Of a stretch of 64,000 bases of DNA, positions 1 to 22,966 are shown piece after piece. How positions within the stretch are numbered: position 1 is the stretch's first letter; every line of letters starts with the position of its first letter. The stretch comes from Prevotella sp. (GTDB lineage: Bacteria > Bacteroidota > Bacteroidia > Bacteroidales > Bacteroidaceae). The stretch lies in NCBI GenBank assembly GCA_045131435.1, contig JBGUQW010000110.1:177-64176 (forward strand), read 5' to 3'. Made by a program: the position numbers and the translations under genes. The notes under the pieces were generated by a model. It did no database searches and was not told where the DNA came from. It saw only the letters and a list, made by a program, of their open reading frames with translations.

Positions 1-1220
1 AGCAGTTCTGGAAGAAAGAAGCCTTCGGAGTCATCACCACCCACTACCAGAACCTGAAGCACTTTGCCGAAGACCATCCGGGCGTGGTGAACGGAGCGAT
101 GCTCTACGACCGACATCAGATGCAGGCGTTGTTCCAGTTGTCTATAGGTCAGCCAGGCTCGTCGTTTGCCATAGAGATAGCCCGTAAGACAGGAATTCCC
201 GATGAGGTCATCAATGACGCCTCTGAGATTGTGGGTTCTGAATATATCCAAAGTGACAAATACCTGCAGGACATTGTTCGCGACAAGCGCTACTGGGAGG
301 GCAAGCGTCAGACCATCCACCAGCACGAGAAGTCGCTGGAAGGTCACATCCAGCGCTACGAGACGAACCTGGAGGAGATTGAGCGTGAGCGCAAGCAGAT
401 TCTGCGCCGTGCCCAGGAACAAGCTGACGAACTGATTCGCCAGGCCAACCAGAAGATTGAGAACACCATCCGTGAAATCAAGGAGGCGCAGGCCGATAAG
501 GAGCGCACCCGTATTGTCCGCGAAGAGCTGCAGCAGTTCCGCGAACAGGTGGTCAACGACGACACACGCGGACTGATGAGCGAAGAGGACTTTGCCAAGC
601 GTCTGCAGAAAATGGAGGAGCGCAAGGCCCGTAAGGAAAAGCGCAAGGCTGAGAAAGGGCAGCAGCAGAAGGCCGTCAGCGAGAAGCTGGCTGCCAGGGC
701 GAAAGCGAGTCTGGACGATGCCAACCGTCCTTTGGAGAAGGGTGACACCGTGCGCATCAAGGGTACGAACAGCGTGGGCGAGATAGAAACCATACAGGGC
801 AAGCAGGCCACGGTTATCTTCGGCGGGTTGCGTTCGAAGGTGAAGCTGGAACAACTGGAAAGGACTGCCTCCCCCAGCTCCTCCAAAGGAGGGGAGAATG
901 CTGCAGATAAGCATGCCCATCTGGCTGTGCAGACCAGCAAGATGACACGCTCGACGATGGAAGACCGCAAGCAGAATTTCCATCAGGACTTGGACGTGCG
1001 CGGCATGCGTGGTGACGAGGCCGTCGACACCGTCATGCACTTCATCGACGATGCCATTCTAATAGGCATGAGCCGAGTGCGCATCCTTCATGGCACGGGG
1101 TCAGGTATTCTGCGCCAGCTGATTCGCCAGTATCTGAATACCGTCCCCAATGTCACTAAGGCACGCGATGAACACGTTCAGTTTGGTGGCGCCGGTATTA
1201 CTGTTGTCGATTTGGACTAA
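1..1220 (+). CDS. mutS2: endonuclease MutS2, C-terminal part (5' end lies outside the window)
   Basis: The frame is open from nt 3 (QFWKKEAFGVITTHYQNLKHF...). It has a long KE-rich coiled-coil linker and a C-terminal Smr-like block, LDVRGMRGDEA...RILHGTGSGILR. Confidence 0.9.
   Translation, partial: QFWKKEAFGVITTHYQNLKHFAEDHPGVVNGAMLYDRHQMQALFQLSIGQPGSSFAIEIARKTGIPDEVINDASEIVGSEYIQSDKYLQDIVRDKRYWEGKRQTIHQHEKSLEGHIQRYETNLEEIERERKQILRRAQEQADELIRQANQKIENTIREIKEAQADKERTRIVREELQQFREQVVNDDTRGLMSEEDFAKRLQKMEERKARKEKRKAEKGQQQKAVSEKLAARAKASLDDANRPLEKGDTVRIKGTNSVGEIETIQGKQATVIFGGLRSKVKLEQLERTASPSSSKGGENAADKHAHLAVQTSKMTRSTMEDRKQNFHQDLDVRGMRGDEAVDTVMHFIDDAILIGMSRVRILHGTGSGILRQLIRQYLNTVPNVTKARDEHVQFGGAGITVVDLD
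868..896 (+). repeat. C-rich/G-rich palindromic mini-element, in frame in mutS2
   Basis: cctcccccagctcctccaaaggaggggag, which encodes SPSSSKGGE. Confidence 0.7.
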
Positions 1221-2233
1221 AACGCCAAACCATCATTATCACAAAGGGATGTTGCCAGTTGCTGCGCTTCGTGACGAGCGGGTTTACCTGTAGCCGTCAT
1301 TGGAATATGCGGAACGGTGAGGATATGGCGCGGAAGCCAGTATTTAGGAAGAACGTTACGGCAAATGGCCTGTAAGGTTGCAGTATCAGACGACTCGGTG
1401 AGCATGACAACCTGTTCGCCGAGTCTGACGTCTGGCACTTTGGTAATTATAAAAGGAACACGCACGCAAGACCTCAGCAGGCGTTCCACCTCTTCAATCT
1501 GAATCTTGATACCACCTGAACAGATGACGTTGTCCTTGCGCCCAAGGATGCGGAAGGCCACCTTCCCCGCCCTCTCCGACTGGAGAGGGGGCCGCAGTTC
1601 AGCGATGTCGTTGGTGACGAGAGTTCCGTCGTGAACAGTAGGGGCATCAATGACCAAGCAGCCATCATCATTCAGCGATAAACGGACGCCATCGAAGGGC
1701 GTATACCAGTCGGAGCGCTCAGGGCCGTTGAGTCGGCGCAGGGCAATATGTGAGAGCGTTTCCGTCATGCCGTAGGTGCTATAAACAGGATTTGGGAAAT
1801 CAGCCAGGGCACGCTCCAGCTCAGCATCGATGGCACCCCCTCCGATGATGAGATGACGAATAGCTTTCAGGCATTCGCGTTCCTCAGGAACCTGAAGCGA
1901 GTTGTAAACCTGAAGAGGAACCATCGCCGCAAAATCAATATGCCCAGCCACTGTTCCCAGCGGGTTTCCGCTGGGTGGAACAGTGATAAGCTCCAGGCCA
2001 CAGGTGAGGGCACGGACGACCATCATTTTGCCTGCGATATAGTCGAGCGACATGCAAAGCAGAGCCGTATCGCCTGGCTGCAGTCCCAAGAAGCGGCATG
2101 TCATGCGTGCCGAGGCCTTCATGCGCCGTTTCTCTACGAGCATGGGCTTCGGCTGTCCCGTGGAGCCGCTGGTATGTACCAACAGCGTGGGACTATCGTT
2201 GTGCCATTCGGCAAGAAACTCTTCTAAACTCAC
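1217..2233 (-). CDS. menE: O-succinylbenzoate-CoA ligase (AMP-binding enzyme)
   Basis: AMP-binding motif TSGSTGQPKP, GMTE, and C-terminal TATGKPAR. It sits next to menC and menB. The start appears to be GTG. Its stop overlaps the mutS2 stop by 4 nt (convergent). Confidence 0.8.
   Translation of the reverse strand: MSLEEFLAEWHNDSPTLLVHTSGSTGQPKPMLVEKRRMKASARMTCRFLGLQPGDTALLCMSLDYIAGKMMVVRALTCGLELITVPPSGNPLGTVAGHIDFAAMVPLQVYNSLQVPEERECLKAIRHLIIGGGAIDAELERALADFPNPVYSTYGMTETLSHIALRRLNGPERSDWYTPFDGVRLSLNDDGCLVIDAPTVHDGTLVTNDIAELRPPLQSERAGKVAFRILGRKDNVICSGGIKIQIEEVERLLRSCVRVPFIITKVPDVRLGEQVVMLTESSDTATLQAICRNVLPKYWLPRHILTVPHIPMTATGKPARHEAQQLATSLCDNDGLAF
1565..1592 (-). repeat. related palindromic mini-element, in frame in menE
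   Basis: The sense strand reads ccccctctcc-agtc-ggagagggcgggg, which encodes PPLQSERAG. Confidence 0.5.
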
Positions 2234-2264
2234 CTTGAACCTTTAACCATGAACCCTTAACCAT
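2233..2264 (+). repeat. heptamer array CTTGAAC/CTTTAAC/CATGAAC/CCTTAAC at the menC-menE junction
   Basis: TGA/TAA recur at about 7-nt spacing and hit all three + frames (checked by hand). The array overlaps the menC C-terminus LWLRVHG. Confidence 0.7.
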
Positions 2265-3316
2265 AATTTGTCGCCCCTTATCTCTAAAGGCATATCGATA
2301 TTATCTGTAAAAAGCTGACCTGTGCCAAGACCCTGTGGCATCATCTCCCCTCCTTGGGAGGGGTTGGGGGAGCTTTCATACACGCTGGCACAAAACTGTG
2401 CGATGGCATTCAGTCCGATGTTGCTCTCAAGAGCCGATGTAATCCACGTGCCGATACGCATGTCGCGAGCTGTTTCTATCCACTCGCGACAGCCCATCAT
2501 GCCACCATGCAGCGAAGGTTTCAGCACGAGGTAGCGCGGACGGATGATGTTGAGCATCTGGCGCTTCTGGTCAGGATCGTTGACACCGATGAGTTCCTCG
2601 TCGAGGGCGATGGGCAATGGTGACTCGCGACATAGCTCGGACATAAACGACCACTGGCCAGCACGGATGGGTTGCTCGATGCTGTGCAGGGCATACTGCG
2701 ACAGCAGTTCGAGTTTGTACAAAGCTTCGTCAAAGGAGAACGCACCATTGGCATCGACGCGCAGTTCAACGTCGTGATGACTGAAACGGCTGCGAATCTT
2801 TTTAATCAGTTCCAGCTCGGCATCGAAGTCGATAGCCCCTATTTTCAGTTTGACGCAATGGAAGCCCTGCTTGAGTTTCTCTTCGATGCGCTGTTGCATC
2901 TCTTCAAAGGTTCCCATCCATACGAGACCGTTGATGGGAATACCCTGTTTGCCACGAGAGAAGGGGGTGTAGAAGAGAATGGGTGATGGGTGGTGGGTGT
3001 TGGGTGATGGATGATTCCTCAAATCAAGTAATGCTGTTTCCAAGCCGAAAAGCATGGAGGGGTAGTCGCGGAGGGCTTCGTAGGGTATTTCACCAGTACG
3101 CTCCACATCGTCGCAGAAGTGGCGCAGCACGTCGGCATAGTTTGGCAGGTCGTCGCAACTGAGCTGGGGCAGCGGGGCACATTCGCCTGTTCCGACTGCA
3201 GAACCGTCGGACACGCGAAGGAGCCAGATGCGGCGCTCAGTATAGACGCCACGACTGGTACCTGCTGGCTGTTTGAAATGGAGTACGCGCTCCTCAATGT
3301 CGATTTTATAACTCAT
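2243..3316 (-). CDS. menC: o-succinylbenzoate synthase (enolase superfamily, MR/MLE)
   Basis: Enolase-superfamily pattern: KLKIG, ELRVDANGAF, IEQP, LDEEL. It lies between menB and menE. It carries two short repeat insertions (see findings). Confidence 0.85.
   Translation of the reverse strand: MSYKIDIEERVLHFKQPAGTSRGVYTERRIWLLRVSDGSAVGTGECAPLPQLSCDDLPNYADVLRHFCDDVERTGEIPYEALRDYPSMLFGLETALLDLRNHPSPNTHHPSPILFYTPFSRGKQGIPINGLVWMGTFEEMQQRIEEKLKQGFHCVKLKIGAIDFDAELELIKKIRSRFSHHDVELRVDANGAFSFDEALYKLELLSQYALHSIEQPIRAGQWSFMSELCRESPLPIALDEELIGVNDPDQKRQMLNIIRPRYLVLKPSLHGGMMGCREWIETARDMRIGTWITSALESNIGLNAIAQFCASVYESSPNPSQGGEMMPQGLGTGQLFTDNIDMPLEIRGDKLWLRVHG
2345..2372 (-). repeat. C-rich/G-rich palindromic mini-element, in frame in menC
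   Basis: The sense strand reads ctcccccaacccctcc-caa-ggaggggag, which encodes SPNPSQGGE. Confidence 0.7.
2981..3014 (+). repeat. GT-rich heptamer array (GGGTGAT/GGGTGGT/GGGTGTT), a G4 motif, inside menC
   Basis: gggtgatgggtggtgggtgttgggtgatgg. The antisense reading gives NHPSPNTHHPSP. Confidence 0.8.
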
Positions 3317-3351
3317 CCGAAAAATCCGTCTAATCTGTGGTCAATCATAAT

Positions 3352-4209
3352 TTATGGAATCTGTGGATATTTATCGAAGTCGGGCTTACGCTTTTCGAGG
3401 AAAGCCTTTCCACCTTCCTGTGCTTCGTCGAGGAAGTAGTAGAGCATGGTGGCATCTCCCGCCAGCTGCTGGATGCCAGCCTGTCCGTCGAGTTCAGCAT
3501 TCAGACCAGCCTTGATCATCCTTAATGCCAACGGCGAACGCTCCATCATCGTCTCAGCCCACTCCACACACTCGTCCTCAAGCTGTTCGATAGGCACCAC
3601 CTTGTTCACCATTCCCATCTGTTCAGCCTCTGCTGCCGTATATTGACGACACAAGAACCATATCTCGCGAGCCTTCTTCTGACCCACGATACGAGCCAGA
3701 TAGCTGGAGCCGAAGCCAGCATCGAAGGAACCGACCTTAGGACCTGTTTGCCCGAAAATGGCATTTTCGGACGCGATGGTCAGGTCACACACCAAATGCA
3801 GCACATGGCCCCCACCGATGGCATAGCCGTTCACCATCGCAATGACGGGTTTAGGCAGCCGGCGAATCTGCATCTGCACATCGAGCACAGAGAGGCGGGG
3901 CACGCCATCCTCGTCGATATAGCCGCCACGACCTTTGACATGCATGTCGCCACCAGAGCAGAAGGCGTGTTTCACGTCCTCCGGGCGCTGTCCCTCCGGC
4001 ACTTCCGACATAGCCCCCGTCAGCAGCACCACACGGATCTGCTGCATCTCGCGGCAAAGCGCAAAGGCCTGACTCAGCTCATACGTCGTCTTCGGCGTGA
4101 AGGCATTGCGATAGTGCGGTCTGTTGATGGTAATCTTAGCGATGCCATGATACTCTTCGAAGAGAATCTCCTCGAACTTCCTAATCTCTTTCCATTGTCT
4201 TTTTTCCAT
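3352..4209 (-). CDS. menB: 1,4-dihydroxy-2-naphthoyl-CoA synthase
   Basis: A 285-aa crotonase-fold protein with typical MenB blocks ([37 protein letters not shown]). Confidence 0.95.
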
Positions 4210-20975: not shown

Positions 20976-21048
20976 AATTTTCAATTATTCATTGATCAAT
21001 CGCCGAAGGCGACCATTCCTCATTCCTCATTCCACATTCCTCATTTTA
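20976..21048. repeat. composite element: AT-rich heptamers, a GC hairpin TCGCC-GAA-GGCGA (21000-21012), then CATTCCT heptamers
   Basis: The architecture and hairpin core (AATCGSCGAAGSCGAC) match the element at 51885-51957. The LRR stop codon lies in the right-hand array. Confidence 0.7.
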
Positions 21049-22966
21049 TCACTACTTTTCGTCCGTTATTGATGTAGATTCCCTTCTTCGTTGGCTTCTG
21101 CGAGAGCTTGCGGCCACTCAGGTCATACCACTCCCCTCCATATAGGGAGGGGCTGGGGGTGGGTCTGAGGTTCGTCGTCTCGCCCTCATAAATCCACTGG
21201 AATCCCGCTGCATTGTTGCTGAGGTTCAGTTGATTGGTGGGCAGTGAGAGGTACGCCTTGTTGGCGCCGATGGCTCCGGCCTCAGAGAGCGTGTACCAGT
21301 CGATGCCGTAGTTGCCGTTGGCCAGGATGAAGTTCGTGTTCGTGCTGGTGGTCACGGGTACCTCAGTCGTAGCGTCCGTCACACCGACCAGGTAGTTCTG
21401 GGCAGGCGCACTGGCGCTGGTGGCGACTGGTACGGTGAATGTTGTGCTGGGTGTACCCTTCAGCAGCAGGCCTGTACCGGCGGGTACTGCGCCGACACTG
21501 CTCAGCGTCAGTGTGCCTGCTGTGCCGTCGAATGCGCTGACGATGTATGCCGACAGTCCAGCGATGCCCGTGAAGTCGAGCGCCTGGGTGCTGGCATAGG
21601 TCATGATGCCTGCGCTGTTCATGGTCACGGTGCAGGCGAGGGGGAGGAATTCTTCGGTGCCGCTGTATGTCAGGTAAGCCGTCTGGGCGACGATGTCATC
21701 GGTGTCGCTGAGACGGTAGAAGCCTATGCCGTCGCTGCCATTTTTCAGCATGTAGGCATTGCCCGGGTTGGTGATTCTGGTCATTTTTCCTTCAAGTCTG
21801 TTGCTATTGTAGCTGTGAGTGCTGCCCGAAGCTGCATATTCAGGCTGAATGCTACTTGATGCAGACTTCAGCACCACGCCCTTGCCCTTGTTGATGATGC
21901 GGTCAGGAATCTCCACCAGCTTCAGAGAAGTGCCGCTGAGCGTCACTTTGAATACCTGCGTTCCTGAGGGCGCCTGAGCGTTGGAGAGATTGTTGAAGTA
22001 TGTTGCCCAGTACTCGCCCGTCTCTGCTTCTTCGGCAGGGATGGTGATGGCCTCTATCCTGCTTGCATAGTCGCTCCAGCCACTCTTATAGGTATCGACA
22101 CATCCGTTGAATACGTGAATCTTAAGTTTTGCATTTGTGCCTGCGAAAGCAGTGCTACTATACGTAGTCAGACTTGGCGCATAGATGGTTGCTGACGTCA
22201 GGTTTTCATTATTGCACCCATAGAAGGCATAGTTGCCAATGTGCGTTACGCCTTCATCGATAACGATGCTTGTGATAGAGGCACGGTCAGAGTACCATGG
22301 GGCATTACCTGCTGAATAATCCGCCATTGCTCCCATACCGCTGATCATCAGTACGCCATACTGTGCCAGCACCCACGTCACTTCACTTTCGTGCCCAGTT
22401 GTGCCGCAGTTTCCCATGCCATCATAGCCCATTATGATGCTGGATTTGTCAGACCAATTGGCGGCAGCTTTGTAATCATCAACACTAGCTGTAGGCACAT
22501 ATATTGTTGTAAGGGCAGAGCATCCATCAAATGCCTTGGTGCCCAGCGTTGTTAACGGAAACAAGCGTTTTACGGCAACTGTAGTAAGCTTGCTACATAT
22601 ATTGAAAGCATAATTACCGATACTCTTCATGCTGGAGGGAATCTCAATAGATGTCAGATTGCTACAACGATTGAAAGCATAGTCACTAATGTGGGTAATG
22701 TTATTATCGATAACCACCGTTGTGATGTTGTCCCTAAAAGAGAACCATGGGGTTTGATCCTTAGTGTAGTCCCACATCTCTCCTGTACCGCTGATGGTGA
22801 GGGTCTCGTCGGTGCCGTCGCTATTGGTGTCGGTCATGGTCCATGTGACGTTATCACCACAGTAGCCATCACTGACTACTGCGGCGGTGCCGGTGACGTC
22901 GGTGCTGGTGCCGCTACCCGTCCATGCCCATGCCGTCTGTGCGGTCATCGTGAGCAAAAAGTACAC
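21041..22966 (-). CDS. BspA-type leucine-rich-repeat surface protein with a T9SS C-terminal sorting domain
   Basis: Repeated units of the type IxxYAFxxCxxLTSIxIPSS, and a C-terminus WYDLSGRKLSQKPTKKGIYINNGRKVVIK. The 5' end is unclear: either a GTG start at 22966, or ATG 23036 plus a 1-nt frameshift (see finding). Confidence 0.8.
   Translation of the reverse strand: MYFLLTMTAQTAWAWTGSGTSTDVTGTAAVVSDGYCGDNVTWTMTDTNSDGTDETLTISGTGEMWDYTKDQTPWFSFRDNITTVVIDNNITHISDYAFNRCSNLTSIEIPSSMKSIGNYAFNICSKLTTVAVKRLFPLTTLGTKAFDGCSALTTIYVPTASVDDYKAAANWSDKSSIIMGYDGMGNCGTTGHESEVTWVLAQYGVLMISGMGAMADYSAGNAPWYSDRASITSIVIDEGVTHIGNYAFYGCNNENLTSATIYAPSLTTYSSTAFAGTNAKLKIHVFNGCVDTYKSGWSDYASRIEAITIPAEEAETGEYWATYFNNLSNAQAPSGTQVFKVTLSGTSLKLVEIPDRIINKGKGVVLKSASSSIQPEYAASGSTHSYNSNRLEGKMTRITNPGNAYMLKNGSDGIGFYRLSDTDDIVAQTAYLTYSGTEEFLPLACTVTMNSAGIMTYASTQALDFTGIAGLSAYIVSAFDGTAGTLTLSSVGAVPAGTGLLLKGTPSTTFTVPVATSASAPAQNYLVGVTDATTEVPVTTSTNTNFILANGNYGIDWYTLSEAGAIGANKAYLSLPTNQLNLSNNAAGFQWIYEGETTNLRPTPSPSLYGGEWYDLSGRKLSQKPTKKGIYINNGRKVVIK
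21131..21161 (-). repeat. C-rich/G-rich palindromic mini-element, in frame in the LRR gene (inside the T9SS CTD)
   Basis: The sense strand reads cacccccagcccctcc-ctatat-ggaggggag, which encodes TPSPSLYGGE. Confidence 0.7.

Follow-up and report, generated by a model that had tools for sequence, protein, structure and literature searches.

The window analysed here is a stretch of 64,000 nt from a rumen Prevotella sp. [GenBank assembly GCA_045131435.1, contig JBGUQW010000110.1, positions 177-64,176], and coordinates are those of the window unless another contig is named. Four of its genes carry a copy of a short, C- and G-rich palindromic repeat. These are the 3′ part of mutS2 (3..1220, plus strand; orthologs are 851-907 aa), menE (1217..2233, minus strand), menC for o-succinylbenzoate synthase (2243..3316, minus strand), and a gene for an LRR surface protein with a short Prevotella-type C-terminal sorting domain (21041..22966, minus strand).

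The mutS2 unit (867..896, plus strand; GCCTCCCCCAGCTCCTCCAAAGGAGGGGAG; nhmmer E 4.5e-5) and the menC unit (2345..2374, minus strand; AGCTCCCCCAACCCCTCCCAAGGAGGGGAG) are 30-nt solo copies of subfamily A. The unit in the LRR gene (21131..21166, minus strand; AGACCCACCCCCAGCCCCTCCCTATATGGAGGGGAG) is a 36-nt solo copy of subfamily B with a 6-nt loop, CTATAT. All three lie in sense orientation and are read as ASPSSSKGGE, SSPNPSQGGE and RPTPSPSLYGGE, respectively. A first-pass annotation, made from the letters of the window, had quoted these three elements and their peptides, and both were recovered as given; all three sites were placed correctly, but each conserved unit extends a little beyond the coordinates it assigned. 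The looser relative it had seen in menE is real and occupies 1561..1592. This is a decayed copy of a separate subfamily, with the stem CCCTCTCC/GGAGAGGG, and its position on the plus strand makes it antisense to menE. Its peptide, PPLQSERAGK, lengthens a permissive loop by 8 aa in the MenE alignment, and it matches antisense copies elsewhere in the genome (LPLPSERAGGEA). The pattern CCCCTCC-N2-8-GGAGGGG occurs twice in the window against an expectation of 0.01, far more than chance would give.

The core unit of the family is GCCTCCCCCRACCCCTCC-GAA-GGAGGGGAG. It consists of a C-rich 5′ extension (GCCTCCCCC-RA), a 7-bp stem closed by a loop of 3-6 nt (CCCCTCC-GAA-GGAGGGG), and a final AG. Stop codons are absent from all six frames of the main 30-nt unit, and the repeat consensus, GCCTCCCCCRACCCCTCCGAAGGAGGGGAG, includes neither a GTAG nor a CGTC tag on either strand. 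For solo hairpins the predicted fold is no better than that of shuffled controls (z -0.35 to -1.8); a 98-nt composite found in pyrG reaches -39.8 kcal/mol (z -12). The lengths of the solo core (30 nt) and of the tandem period (39 nt) are multiples of three, that of the 98-nt composite is not, and it is therefore selection on the net change in length, and not the design of the element, that keeps the reading frame. There is also a mild purine-rich bias 12-20 nt upstream of the units, too weak for a target motif.

A scan of the whole genome, which had been proposed as a check on the first-pass annotation, recovered about 142 copies, among them members of subfamilies A, B, C and D. By our own gene caller 129 of the 142 (91%) are within ORFs, in a genome with a coding density of 89.8%, and 12 of the copies, located in the first tenth of an ORF, may precede the true start codon. 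Sense (67) and antisense (62) copies are both found within genes, each orientation with a preferred frame, so the common sense orientation and frame that had been reported for the mutS2, menC and LRR copies holds for those three but is no rule of the family. The peptides most often encoded are ASPxPSEGGE in sense and SPPSEGxGEA in antisense orientation. In 102 of the 103 copies that could be tested, each flank scores best when read in the frame of the host. Copies that survive have a net length change that preserves this frame, and are themselves read in a frame the protein tolerates.

Copies are distributed over 83 host ORFs, and their positions are spread evenly along them. About 3% of the genes in the genome carry at least one copy, and many of the hosts are essential. 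Pfam domains were detected in 28 of the 30 hosts scanned, which include PyrG, TsaD, Era, ValRS, MetRS, TopA, PyrB, PurD, MutS, IspG, TatC and RsgA. An extended hairpin pattern was matched 66 times in this genome, and its reversed control was not matched in any of the 61 genomes searched. Adjacent copies are arranged as 36 convergent and 5 tandem pairs, with no divergent pair; the convergent pairs span 59-174 bp, and half of the copies are single 30-nt ends. Across the genus the family is patchy, with 66, 62, 54, 41 and 37 copies in five species and none in most of the others, and the loop variants are species-specific, a pattern of lineage-specific bursts. The element sequence is identical in four independent metagenomes. 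Since the same sequence recurs in independent samples, and related elements are present in many species, an assembly artefact was ruled out. Contigs assembled from short reads end at the repeats.

Comparison with orthologs and paralogs indicates insertion and not ancestral sequence, most clearly for the copies in MenC and PyrG. The MenC segment is absent from all 17 orthologs in genomes and from 79 of 80 in metagenomes, the sole exception being the closest relative, which has a decayed copy at the same site; 30 nt are found here where orthologs have 9 nt. In mutS2, where the unit lies in a variable linker ahead of the Smr domain, 27 nt stand in place of 18 unrelated nt in the closest ortholog (86% identity). 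The unit in the LRR gene is in a variable linker of the C-terminal sorting domain. Among 18 paralogous domains of this type, 14 have no element in the linker, one other has a copy of the same subfamily, one has a copy of another subfamily and one has a decayed copy. The MutS2, MenE and LRR copies are thus all in variable linkers or loops where the element is missing in relatives or paralogs. PyrG contains two composites of approximately 98 nt that are absent from 10 relatives and from the solved CTP synthases. Copies sit in variable loops and linkers, where they usually replace a few host codons and are not clean additions. At the sites in MenC and MutS2 and at both in PyrG, no target-site duplication could be seen; the nearest empty sites are 14-30% diverged, too far for exact boundaries to be drawn, and host codons have been replaced. 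Together with the genome scan, these alignments, which had also been proposed as a check, support the earlier suggestion of a mobile or templated mini-insertion that proteins tolerate, akin to the Rickettsia palindromic elements.

The units stay in the mRNA and are translated as floppy loops rich in Ser, Pro, Gly and Glu. Metatranscriptome contigs cross the MenC element with neither gap nor joint, although carry-over of DNA into the library is possible, and removal of the element at the RNA level was rejected on this basis. The MenC insert (residues 315-327) is modelled as a disordered coil with pLDDT below 50. Whole-element presence/absence polymorphism was not seen among contigs of eight metagenome runs, in which positions 1-3500 of the window, the cassette locus described below and contig C43 were compared; neither a vacant nor a freshly occupied site was met with, nor any transposition event, but Logan contigs drop rare variants and this absence counts for little. 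The variation among strains was decay alone, in a single run, X1: a 254-nt deletion within the DUF559 ORF of that cassette, and the in-frame loss of one hairpin arm (21 nt).

The same repeats bound a gene. An ORF for a DUF559 protein (contig C233, 53586-53972) is flanked by 40-nt inverted repeats identical to the consensus of the solo copies. Its 129-aa product matches PF04480 at 115 bits over positions 4-108 of 109, PDB 3HRL at E 1.8e-24, and NF007294 at E 3e-24, the last falling under the equivalog cut-off; it also gives weak matches to Vsr and to I-Bth0305I (PDB 3R3P, E 0.19). This genome has a single intact cassette, whose ends are of subfamily A, and a second, frameshifted one; copies of subfamilies B, C and D are nevertheless present, for which it has no cognate intact cassette. 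A flanking inverted repeat was detected at 64 of 67 DUF559 loci in Bacteroidales, compared with 5 of 67 for a direct-orientation control and 1 of 11 outgroup loci, and at least 15 cassettes in relatives have hairpin ends in which the two arms co-vary. A DUF559 gene was found in 7 of the 9 genomes rich in the element and in 5 of the 25 poor in it (p = 0.0037); the two element-rich genomes that have no homolog are G008 (82% complete) and G046 (90% complete).

In some genomes the cassette is itself part of a host gene. It forms in-frame fusions with Gmk, RNase H and ArgB, and in DegT and LeuRS it lies internally. The 5′ site of Gmk is filled in four species and empty in nine, which is compatible with inheritance or with site preference. 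A Pfam scan of the DUF559-host fusions identified only DUF559/MTES_1575 and the host domains, with no Hint splicing domain, intein or intron, and therefore the insert stays in the protein.

These relationships provide strong support for the units being the terminal inverted repeats of a ~540-bp cassette that encodes a Vsr-like PD-(D/E)xK nuclease (DUF559). It is likewise strongly supported that the convergent pairs are internally deleted cassettes, comparable to MITEs, and that the solo units are single ends. The elements in the window are probably, in our assessment, solo copies of a dispersed hairpin repeat that invades coding sequences and represents the ends of the DUF559 cassette, its spread being driven by the nuclease. 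We infer that the DUF559 protein mobilises the repeat; the candidate nuclease would nick or cut extruded hairpins or target DNA, and the element would be copied in during repair of the break. Copying of this kind would explain why host codons are replaced and why target-site duplications are missing. We know of no PD-(D/E)xK nuclease of the DUF559 family that acts as a transposase, and the association could run in reverse, with the repeats favouring the flanks of DUF559 genes.

In an alternative that we consider unlikely, no dedicated enzyme takes part: recombination in the host, template switching, or gene conversion where forks stall would both spread the hairpins and keep them uniform, and DUF559 would be no more than a frequent neighbour or passenger. 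Replacement of host codons with no visible target-site duplication would fit this reading, as would the MenC copy that is near consensus while the copy in the ortholog of the closest relative has decayed, the different subfamilies found in the same linker of paralogous C-terminal domains, and the hairpin-associated deletions of natural strains. It leaves unexplained why matched inverted ends are found at nearly all Bacteroidales DUF559 genes and not in the outgroup, why neighbouring copies are convergent and never divergent, and why copy number ranges from 0 to >60 between sister species.

Mobilisation as for REP/REPIN-type repeats, by a RAYT (HUH, IS200-like Y1) tyrosine transposase acting on single-stranded hairpins, is considerably less probable. 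The units are short GC-rich palindromes, often in inverted doublets, and the absent target-site duplications would suit Y1 transposition. RAYT-like HUH proteins are also encoded in this genome (on contigs C55 and C205), with matches to PF01797 of 26.7 and 22.2 bits and to NF047646 of 46 bits against a cut-off of 80. However, the profile matches are weak, hairpins flank neither gene, and the units are missing the GTAG/CGTC tag of such repeats (PMC3733652). Copy number does not track the HUH family, which is present in 6 of 9 element-rich and 8 of 25 element-poor genomes (p = 0.08); in genome G009, 62 copies occur without a homolog, and in G041, 7 matches without a copy. The predominance of intragenic copies is the opposite of what is seen for REPs, and a RAYT/IS200-like enzyme was rejected as the mobiliser. 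A selected functional signal that is convergent or conserved and not inserted, such as a peptide linker, a regulatory RNA or DNA hairpin, or an uptake or recombination signal, would fit the frame bias towards Ser/Pro/Gly/Glu peptides and the conserved, stable 7-bp stem, but as the origin of the motif it is essentially refuted and very improbable, given that the same nucleotides occur in both orientations and several frames, in disordered or variable loops, that the segment is missing from orthologs and from most of the genus, and that solo hairpins fold no better than shuffled sequence. The element may have a secondary role, for example in translational pausing or mRNA stability.

The repeats are closely paralleled by the Rickettsia palindromic elements (RPE-1 to RPE-10; Ogata et al. 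2000/2002), which are in-frame palindromes in functional, often essential genes (PMC3733652, PMC3184786). Both families consist of dispersed palindromes, in frame in functional genes and translated as extra surface loops, both have a patchy, lineage-specific distribution, and to neither has a target-site duplication or a transposase been assigned. The present organism, however, belongs to the Bacteroidota and is a free-living gut anaerobe with 90% coding density. Its unit is much shorter (30 nt), extremely asymmetric in C and G and 91% intragenic, and the family has a candidate autonomous form with a nuclease gene. As the organism is a Prevotella and the likeness drawn here is one of layout, the repeats are better said to work like RPEs than to be members of that group.

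Intragenic repeats of the GTAG and CGTC REP types are also known from Opitutus terrae, Thauera and others (Di Nocera et al. [quoted passage not shown] The Prevotella repeats resemble REPs, BIMEs and REPINs as GC-rich stem-loops of 20-40 nt with inverted doublets, variable spacers and several subfamilies per genome, and as in REPs some copies are in frame within DNA-repair and tRNA-synthetase genes. They differ in having no GTAG/CGTC tag and no flanked RAYT gene, in being mostly intragenic, and in a copy number that RAYT-like genes do not track; their doublets surround a DUF559 ORF or are derived from one. MITEs such as Correia/NEMIS of Neisseria and the enterobacterial RU/ERIC elements can be intragenic (PMC2759123, PMC10969869, PMC11602168), but in prokaryotes ~90% of MITEs lie between genes (PMC11602168). 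Classical MITEs have a non-coding core of 50-800 bp within terminal inverted repeats, a layout shared by the convergent pairs (59-174 bp), whose core is variable and which resemble a longer, gene-bearing element with its interior deleted; the 30-nt solos do not share it. Unlike MITEs, ~90% of the Prevotella copies are intragenic, and half are single 30-nt ends; no target-site duplication is visible at the four sites compared with diverged empty ones. Nor do the repeats share their ends with a parent IS that carries a DDE transposase or another one already known: the one element with such ends that bears a gene encodes DUF559.

The cassette shares with inteins and homing endonucleases, the Vsr-like I-Bth0305I in particular, a small nuclease ORF positioned in frame within, or at the start of, genes such as those for LeuRS, DegT, Gmk and RNase H, and a Vsr-like PD-(D/E)xK fold; spread through break repair is plausible. 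It differs from them in its hairpin inverted repeats and in having gene-less derivatives at many unrelated sites and not at one allele. The GC clusters of yeast mitochondria are also short, GC-rich, palindromic and mobile, and some are in coding sequence (var1), where they add residues. They are unlike the Prevotella repeats in their organelle genome, AT-rich background, unrelated sequence and presumed mechanism.

We tentatively propose that the repeats and cassette may constitute an undescribed class of mobile element, one that is stop-free, bounded by hairpins and equipped with a candidate Vsr-like nuclease, that enters coding sequences in frame, even in an essential gene like that for LeuRS, is expressed within the host protein, and sheds gene-less pairs and solo ends that are kept as loops. 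The first-pass annotation had been aware of no description from Prevotellaceae, and our literature searches, most subscription journals lying outside them, returned nothing on the motif strings, on DUF559 with repeats or on intragenic repeats of Prevotella, and so no published account of the family.

In-frame palindromic repeats within genes have stood as an oddity ever since those of Rickettsia were described in 2000, and to our knowledge no enzyme that mobilises them has been identified. If the proposal is true, the new class would be the first to offer a candidate enzyme for the mobilisation of intragenic palindromes of the RPE kind. DUF559 is a concrete and testable candidate, its matched hairpin ends being conserved across Bacteroidales. 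A whole nuclease domain can be carried unspliced by essential proteins. The phenomenon is a large-scale one in an abundant genus of the gut and rumen, extending to ~3% of genes, among them those for PyrG, several tRNA synthetases, TopA and TatC. The repeats break short-read assemblies, inflate protein lengths and can create fused ORFs such as DUF559-Gmk, and they can mislead the annotation of start codons and domains in thousands of Prevotella MAGs. They also chart, as a natural experiment, which loops of conserved enzymes tolerate an insertion.

The three palindromes that the first-pass annotation had quoted from mutS2, menC and the LRR gene were all located in the window and their conserved units delimited. 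The mutS2 unit (867-896, plus strand) encodes ASPSSSKGGE, and those of menC (2345-2374, minus strand; SSPNPSQGGE) and the LRR gene (21131-21166, minus strand; RPTPSPSLYGGE) are likewise in the sense orientation of their hosts. The looser relative described in menE is real (1561-1592), but is antisense to the gene and has another stem, CCCTCTCC/GGAGAGGG. The window contains two matches to CCCCTCC-N2-8-GGAGGGG, where shuffled sequence would be expected to give 0.01.

Across the draft genome (3.79 Mb, 243 contigs), of which the window is C110:177-64176, a strict hairpin search returned 90 sites, nearly always with identical flanks, a looser pattern returned 142 oriented copies, and an nhmmer profile found 124 copies (E ≤ 0.1), rising to 141 when the threshold was relaxed to E ≤ 1. 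The main subfamily has a conserved core of exactly 30 nt, GCCTCCCCC-RA-CCCCTCC-GAA-GGAGGGG-AG, beyond which conservation ends sharply on either side. Subfamilies B (GACCCACCCCCWGCCCCTCC-CTRTAT-GGAGGGGAG), C (AGCCTCACCCCCRRCCCCTCTCC-AAAGGG-CGAGGGGAG) and D (AGCCCCTCCWAACCTCCCC-GAAG-GGGAGGA) differ from the main subfamily in both stem and loop.

The family does not avoid coding DNA. When genes were called with a dicodon model trained on long ORFs (2923 genes covering 89.8% of the genome), 129 of the 142 copies (91%) fell wholly within called ORFs. The sense orientation shared by the mutS2, menC and LRR copies does not extend genome-wide, where 67 copies are sense and 62 antisense. Frame was assessed for the 103 copies bordered on both sides by ≥150 nt of host ORF, by scoring 240-nt flanks in six frames; both flanks scored best in the host frame in 102, and the reading frame therefore runs on through the element, as had been proposed from the window copies. 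The copies are evenly distributed along the length of 83 host ORFs. Pfam domains were found in 28 of the 30 hosts scanned, identifying CTP synthase (four copies), TsaD (three copies), Era, ValRS, MetRS, topoisomerase I, PyrB, PurD, an aconitase-family protein, MutS, a GlmM-like mutase, IspG, TatC, RsgA, agmatine deiminase, GH3 and GH31. The 30-nt core is stop-free in every frame. Frame use is nevertheless biased, with sense copies mostly encoding xASPxPSEGGE, antisense copies mostly SPPSEG(L/S)GEA, and the Arg-rich PLLRRGRGR rare, which we interpret as selection for peptides that the hosts can tolerate.

Four independent gut metagenomes, from cattle and goats, yielded contigs that show 0-2 differences from window positions 1-3500 and contain the elements unchanged, and metagenome contigs frequently stop at elements, as a repeat would predict. 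Metatranscriptome contigs from three runs cross the MenC element without gap or joint. The elements form a dispersed family located in frame within genes and retained in RNA.

None of the 17 MenC orthologs in related genomes has the seven extra residues, and neither do 79 of 80 metagenomic ones; the remaining sequence, from the closest relative (84% identity), carries a decayed copy in this position. In nucleotides, the 30 nt of the element occupy a site where the empty orthologs have 9 nt. The only long segment with pLDDT <50 in an AlphaFold model of MenC (mean pLDDT 79) is the element-encoded peptide, residues 315-327, modelled as coil. The MutS2 unit sits in a variable linker ahead of the Smr domain, where 27 nt here correspond to 18 unrelated nt in the closest ortholog (86% identity). 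MutS2 of another species (G016) carries an independent inverted pair of related elements, and in its alignment a KOW-like segment upstream of the linker is not recognisable. The LRR protein unit lies in the C-terminal sorting domain, where it fills a variable linker flanked by two conserved blocks; among the 18 such domains in the genome, 14 have no element there, one has a copy of the same subfamily, one of another subfamily, and one a decayed copy. Compared with solved CTP synthases, PyrG is longer by 26 and 32 residues at two inverted pairs of ~98 nt. Both are absent from all 10 relatives examined, they take the place of 12-24 nt of variable loop, and no target-site duplication is visible at either site. 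The ortholog comparison suggested in the first-pass annotation, with the element missing from nearly all MenC orthologs, the closest MutS2 ortholog and most paralogous C-terminal sorting domains, thus indicates lineage-specific insertion rather than ancestral sequence.

In MenE, a permissive hairpin loop is 8 residues longer through the copy. This loop (NDIAEL...RFRILGR) holds unrelated inserts in orthologs from other rumen Prevotella, such as SAPAPADS repeats reaching ~35 aa, and is a general insertion hot spot.

As single-stranded DNA, a solo stem (~ -7.4 kcal/mol) is unexceptional against shuffles, whereas a 98-nt inverted pair reaches -39.8 kcal/mol (z -12). Pairs at most 120 nt apart comprise 36 convergent, no divergent and 5 tandem arrangements. 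Tandem arrays with a 39-nt (13-codon) period lie in genes for TatC (C20:8956-9018), an acyl-ACP thioesterase (C20:37016-37078), agmatine deiminase (C237:46218-46280) and a GH3 enzyme (C169:34900-34962), and arrays in another species (G043) have periods of 44 and 66 nt. At C43:5229-5249, a natural strain in one goat-gut metagenome run (X1) has a 21-nt in-frame deletion that takes out the right arm of one hairpin copy, which suggests hairpin-linked instability filtered by reading frame.

The convergent layout is that of a cassette of ~540 bp, in which a DUF559 (Vsr-like PD-(D/E)xK) nuclease ORF lies between hairpin inverted repeats. The PF04480 match at C233:53598-53915 (115 bits) belongs to an ORF of 129 aa between 40-nt inverted repeats, with ends GGCCTCCCCCGCCCCTCCGAAGGAGGGGAGTTGGCTGGCGC and, reverse-complemented, GCCTCCCCCGACCCCTCCGAAGGAGGGGCGTGGCTGGCGC, the outer 30 nt matching the solo consensus. 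Against the solved DUF559 structure 3HRL the protein scores E 1.8e-24; its matches to Vsr and to the Vsr-like homing endonuclease I-Bth0305I are weak. The second match is frameshifted; this gene spans two frames at C32:45835-46187 between hairpins with unlike stems (CCTCCC and CCCTCC) and is probably a defunct cassette from a different subfamily.

In relatives, at least 15 DUF559 genes are bracketed likewise, with stems that vary between cassettes and two arms that match within each. A scan of species-representative genomes (score ≥16) found a flanking inverted repeat at 64 of 67 Bacteroidales DUF559 loci (median 29), compared with 5 of 67 in the direct-orientation control and 1 of 11 homologs from other phyla. 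The loci came from Prevotella, Prevotellaceae, Hoylesella, Alloprevotella and Bacteroidaceae, and the left arms are the A- and C-type units known as solos in this genome. Among genomes of the genus, 7 of the 9 rich in elements encode DUF559, as do 5 of the 25 poor in them (Fisher p = 0.0037). The structural association of elements with the cassette is strong. Counting against a link to the nuclease, two element-rich genomes, both incomplete, have no DUF559, and this genome lacks an intact cognate cassette for subfamilies B to D.

The cassette ORF is stop-free through the right-hand repeat and on into the host gene. Nine relatives without a cassette at gmk have its own start (M-x-GKLIIFSAPSG), whereas here the spacer and first few codons are replaced by the cassette. 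The start codon is thereby removed, and the only ATG-initiated frame is a 363-aa DUF559-Gmk fusion (C233:52848-54066, outside the window). With a further copy at the gmk C-terminus and one at the N-terminus of the next gene (nadD-like), four units and the cassette lie within 1.2 kb. The DUF559-Gmk fusion recurs in three other species with an identical junction; fusions of DUF559 with RNase H (two species) and with an ArgB-like kinase (one species) also occur, and cassettes lie within a DegT aminotransferase and LeuRS, with host domains on both sides. The main strain in run X1 has a 254-nt deletion inside the DUF559 ORF (L182:1554-1807 of the extracted gmk locus, C233:53639-53892). As 254 is not a multiple of three, the fusion would be frameshifted, and either Gmk has another start codon in this strain or the new frame restores one.

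An extended pattern has 66 matches in this genome. Four congeneric species have 62, 54, 41 and 37, five more have 7-14 and the other 27 have 0-4; beyond the genus, the pattern turned up in 1 of 24 other families of the order. Its reversed control gave no match in any genome searched. Each element-rich genome has its own loop variant, and this, with the patchy distribution, argues for lineage-specific bursts. In 27 IMG/VR viral or prophage stretches (GC 36-57%), the exact 28-nt pattern occurs 41 times, and one of these stretches (L217) also encodes a homolog of DUF559, with 51% identity, ~800 nt away from a copy. The elements may travel between hosts on phages.

Mobilisation by a RAYT-type HUH transposase, the initial hypothesis, was not supported: Y1_Tnp/REP_Tyr_transpos matches in the genome are weak, no hairpins flank its HUH genes, the GTAG/CGTC tag of REPs (PMC3733652) is missing from the units, and HUH family and copy number do not track across genomes. 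Beside a RAYT-like HUH gene, 676 nt (C205:24571-25246) contain 22-nt repeats (CGCACGGAGCAGGCGGG) and heptamer arrays (CACCCTAA) that are found again at other places in the genome and are unrelated to the hairpin family.

The family differs from REP/RAYT systems in three defining features, namely tag, extragenic location and REPtron, and from classical MITEs in the transposase. Prokaryotic MITEs are usually ~90% intergenic (PMC11602168), a location reversed here. In placement the cassette is like a homing endonuclease gene or an intein, but it has no splicing domain. Intragenic REPs (Di Nocera et al., PMC3733652) and Rickettsia palindromic elements are similar in behaviour, and the mobile mini-insertion of the latter kind first proposed for the window gains support from the in-frame copies, absence from orthologs and patchy distribution. 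In the literature, incompletely covered, no published description of the motif, of DUF559 with repeats or of Prevotella intragenic repeats was found.

Pairs and solos would be deletion derivatives of the cassette, the strain with the 254-nt internal ORF deletion being a natural parallel. The putative nuclease would drive spread via break repair, a route compatible with the replacement of host codons and the lack of target duplications; eight metagenome runs yielded neither an empty site nor a new insertion. There is a real chance that the family represents a new class of mobile element, one that is nuclease-borne and invades coding sequence.
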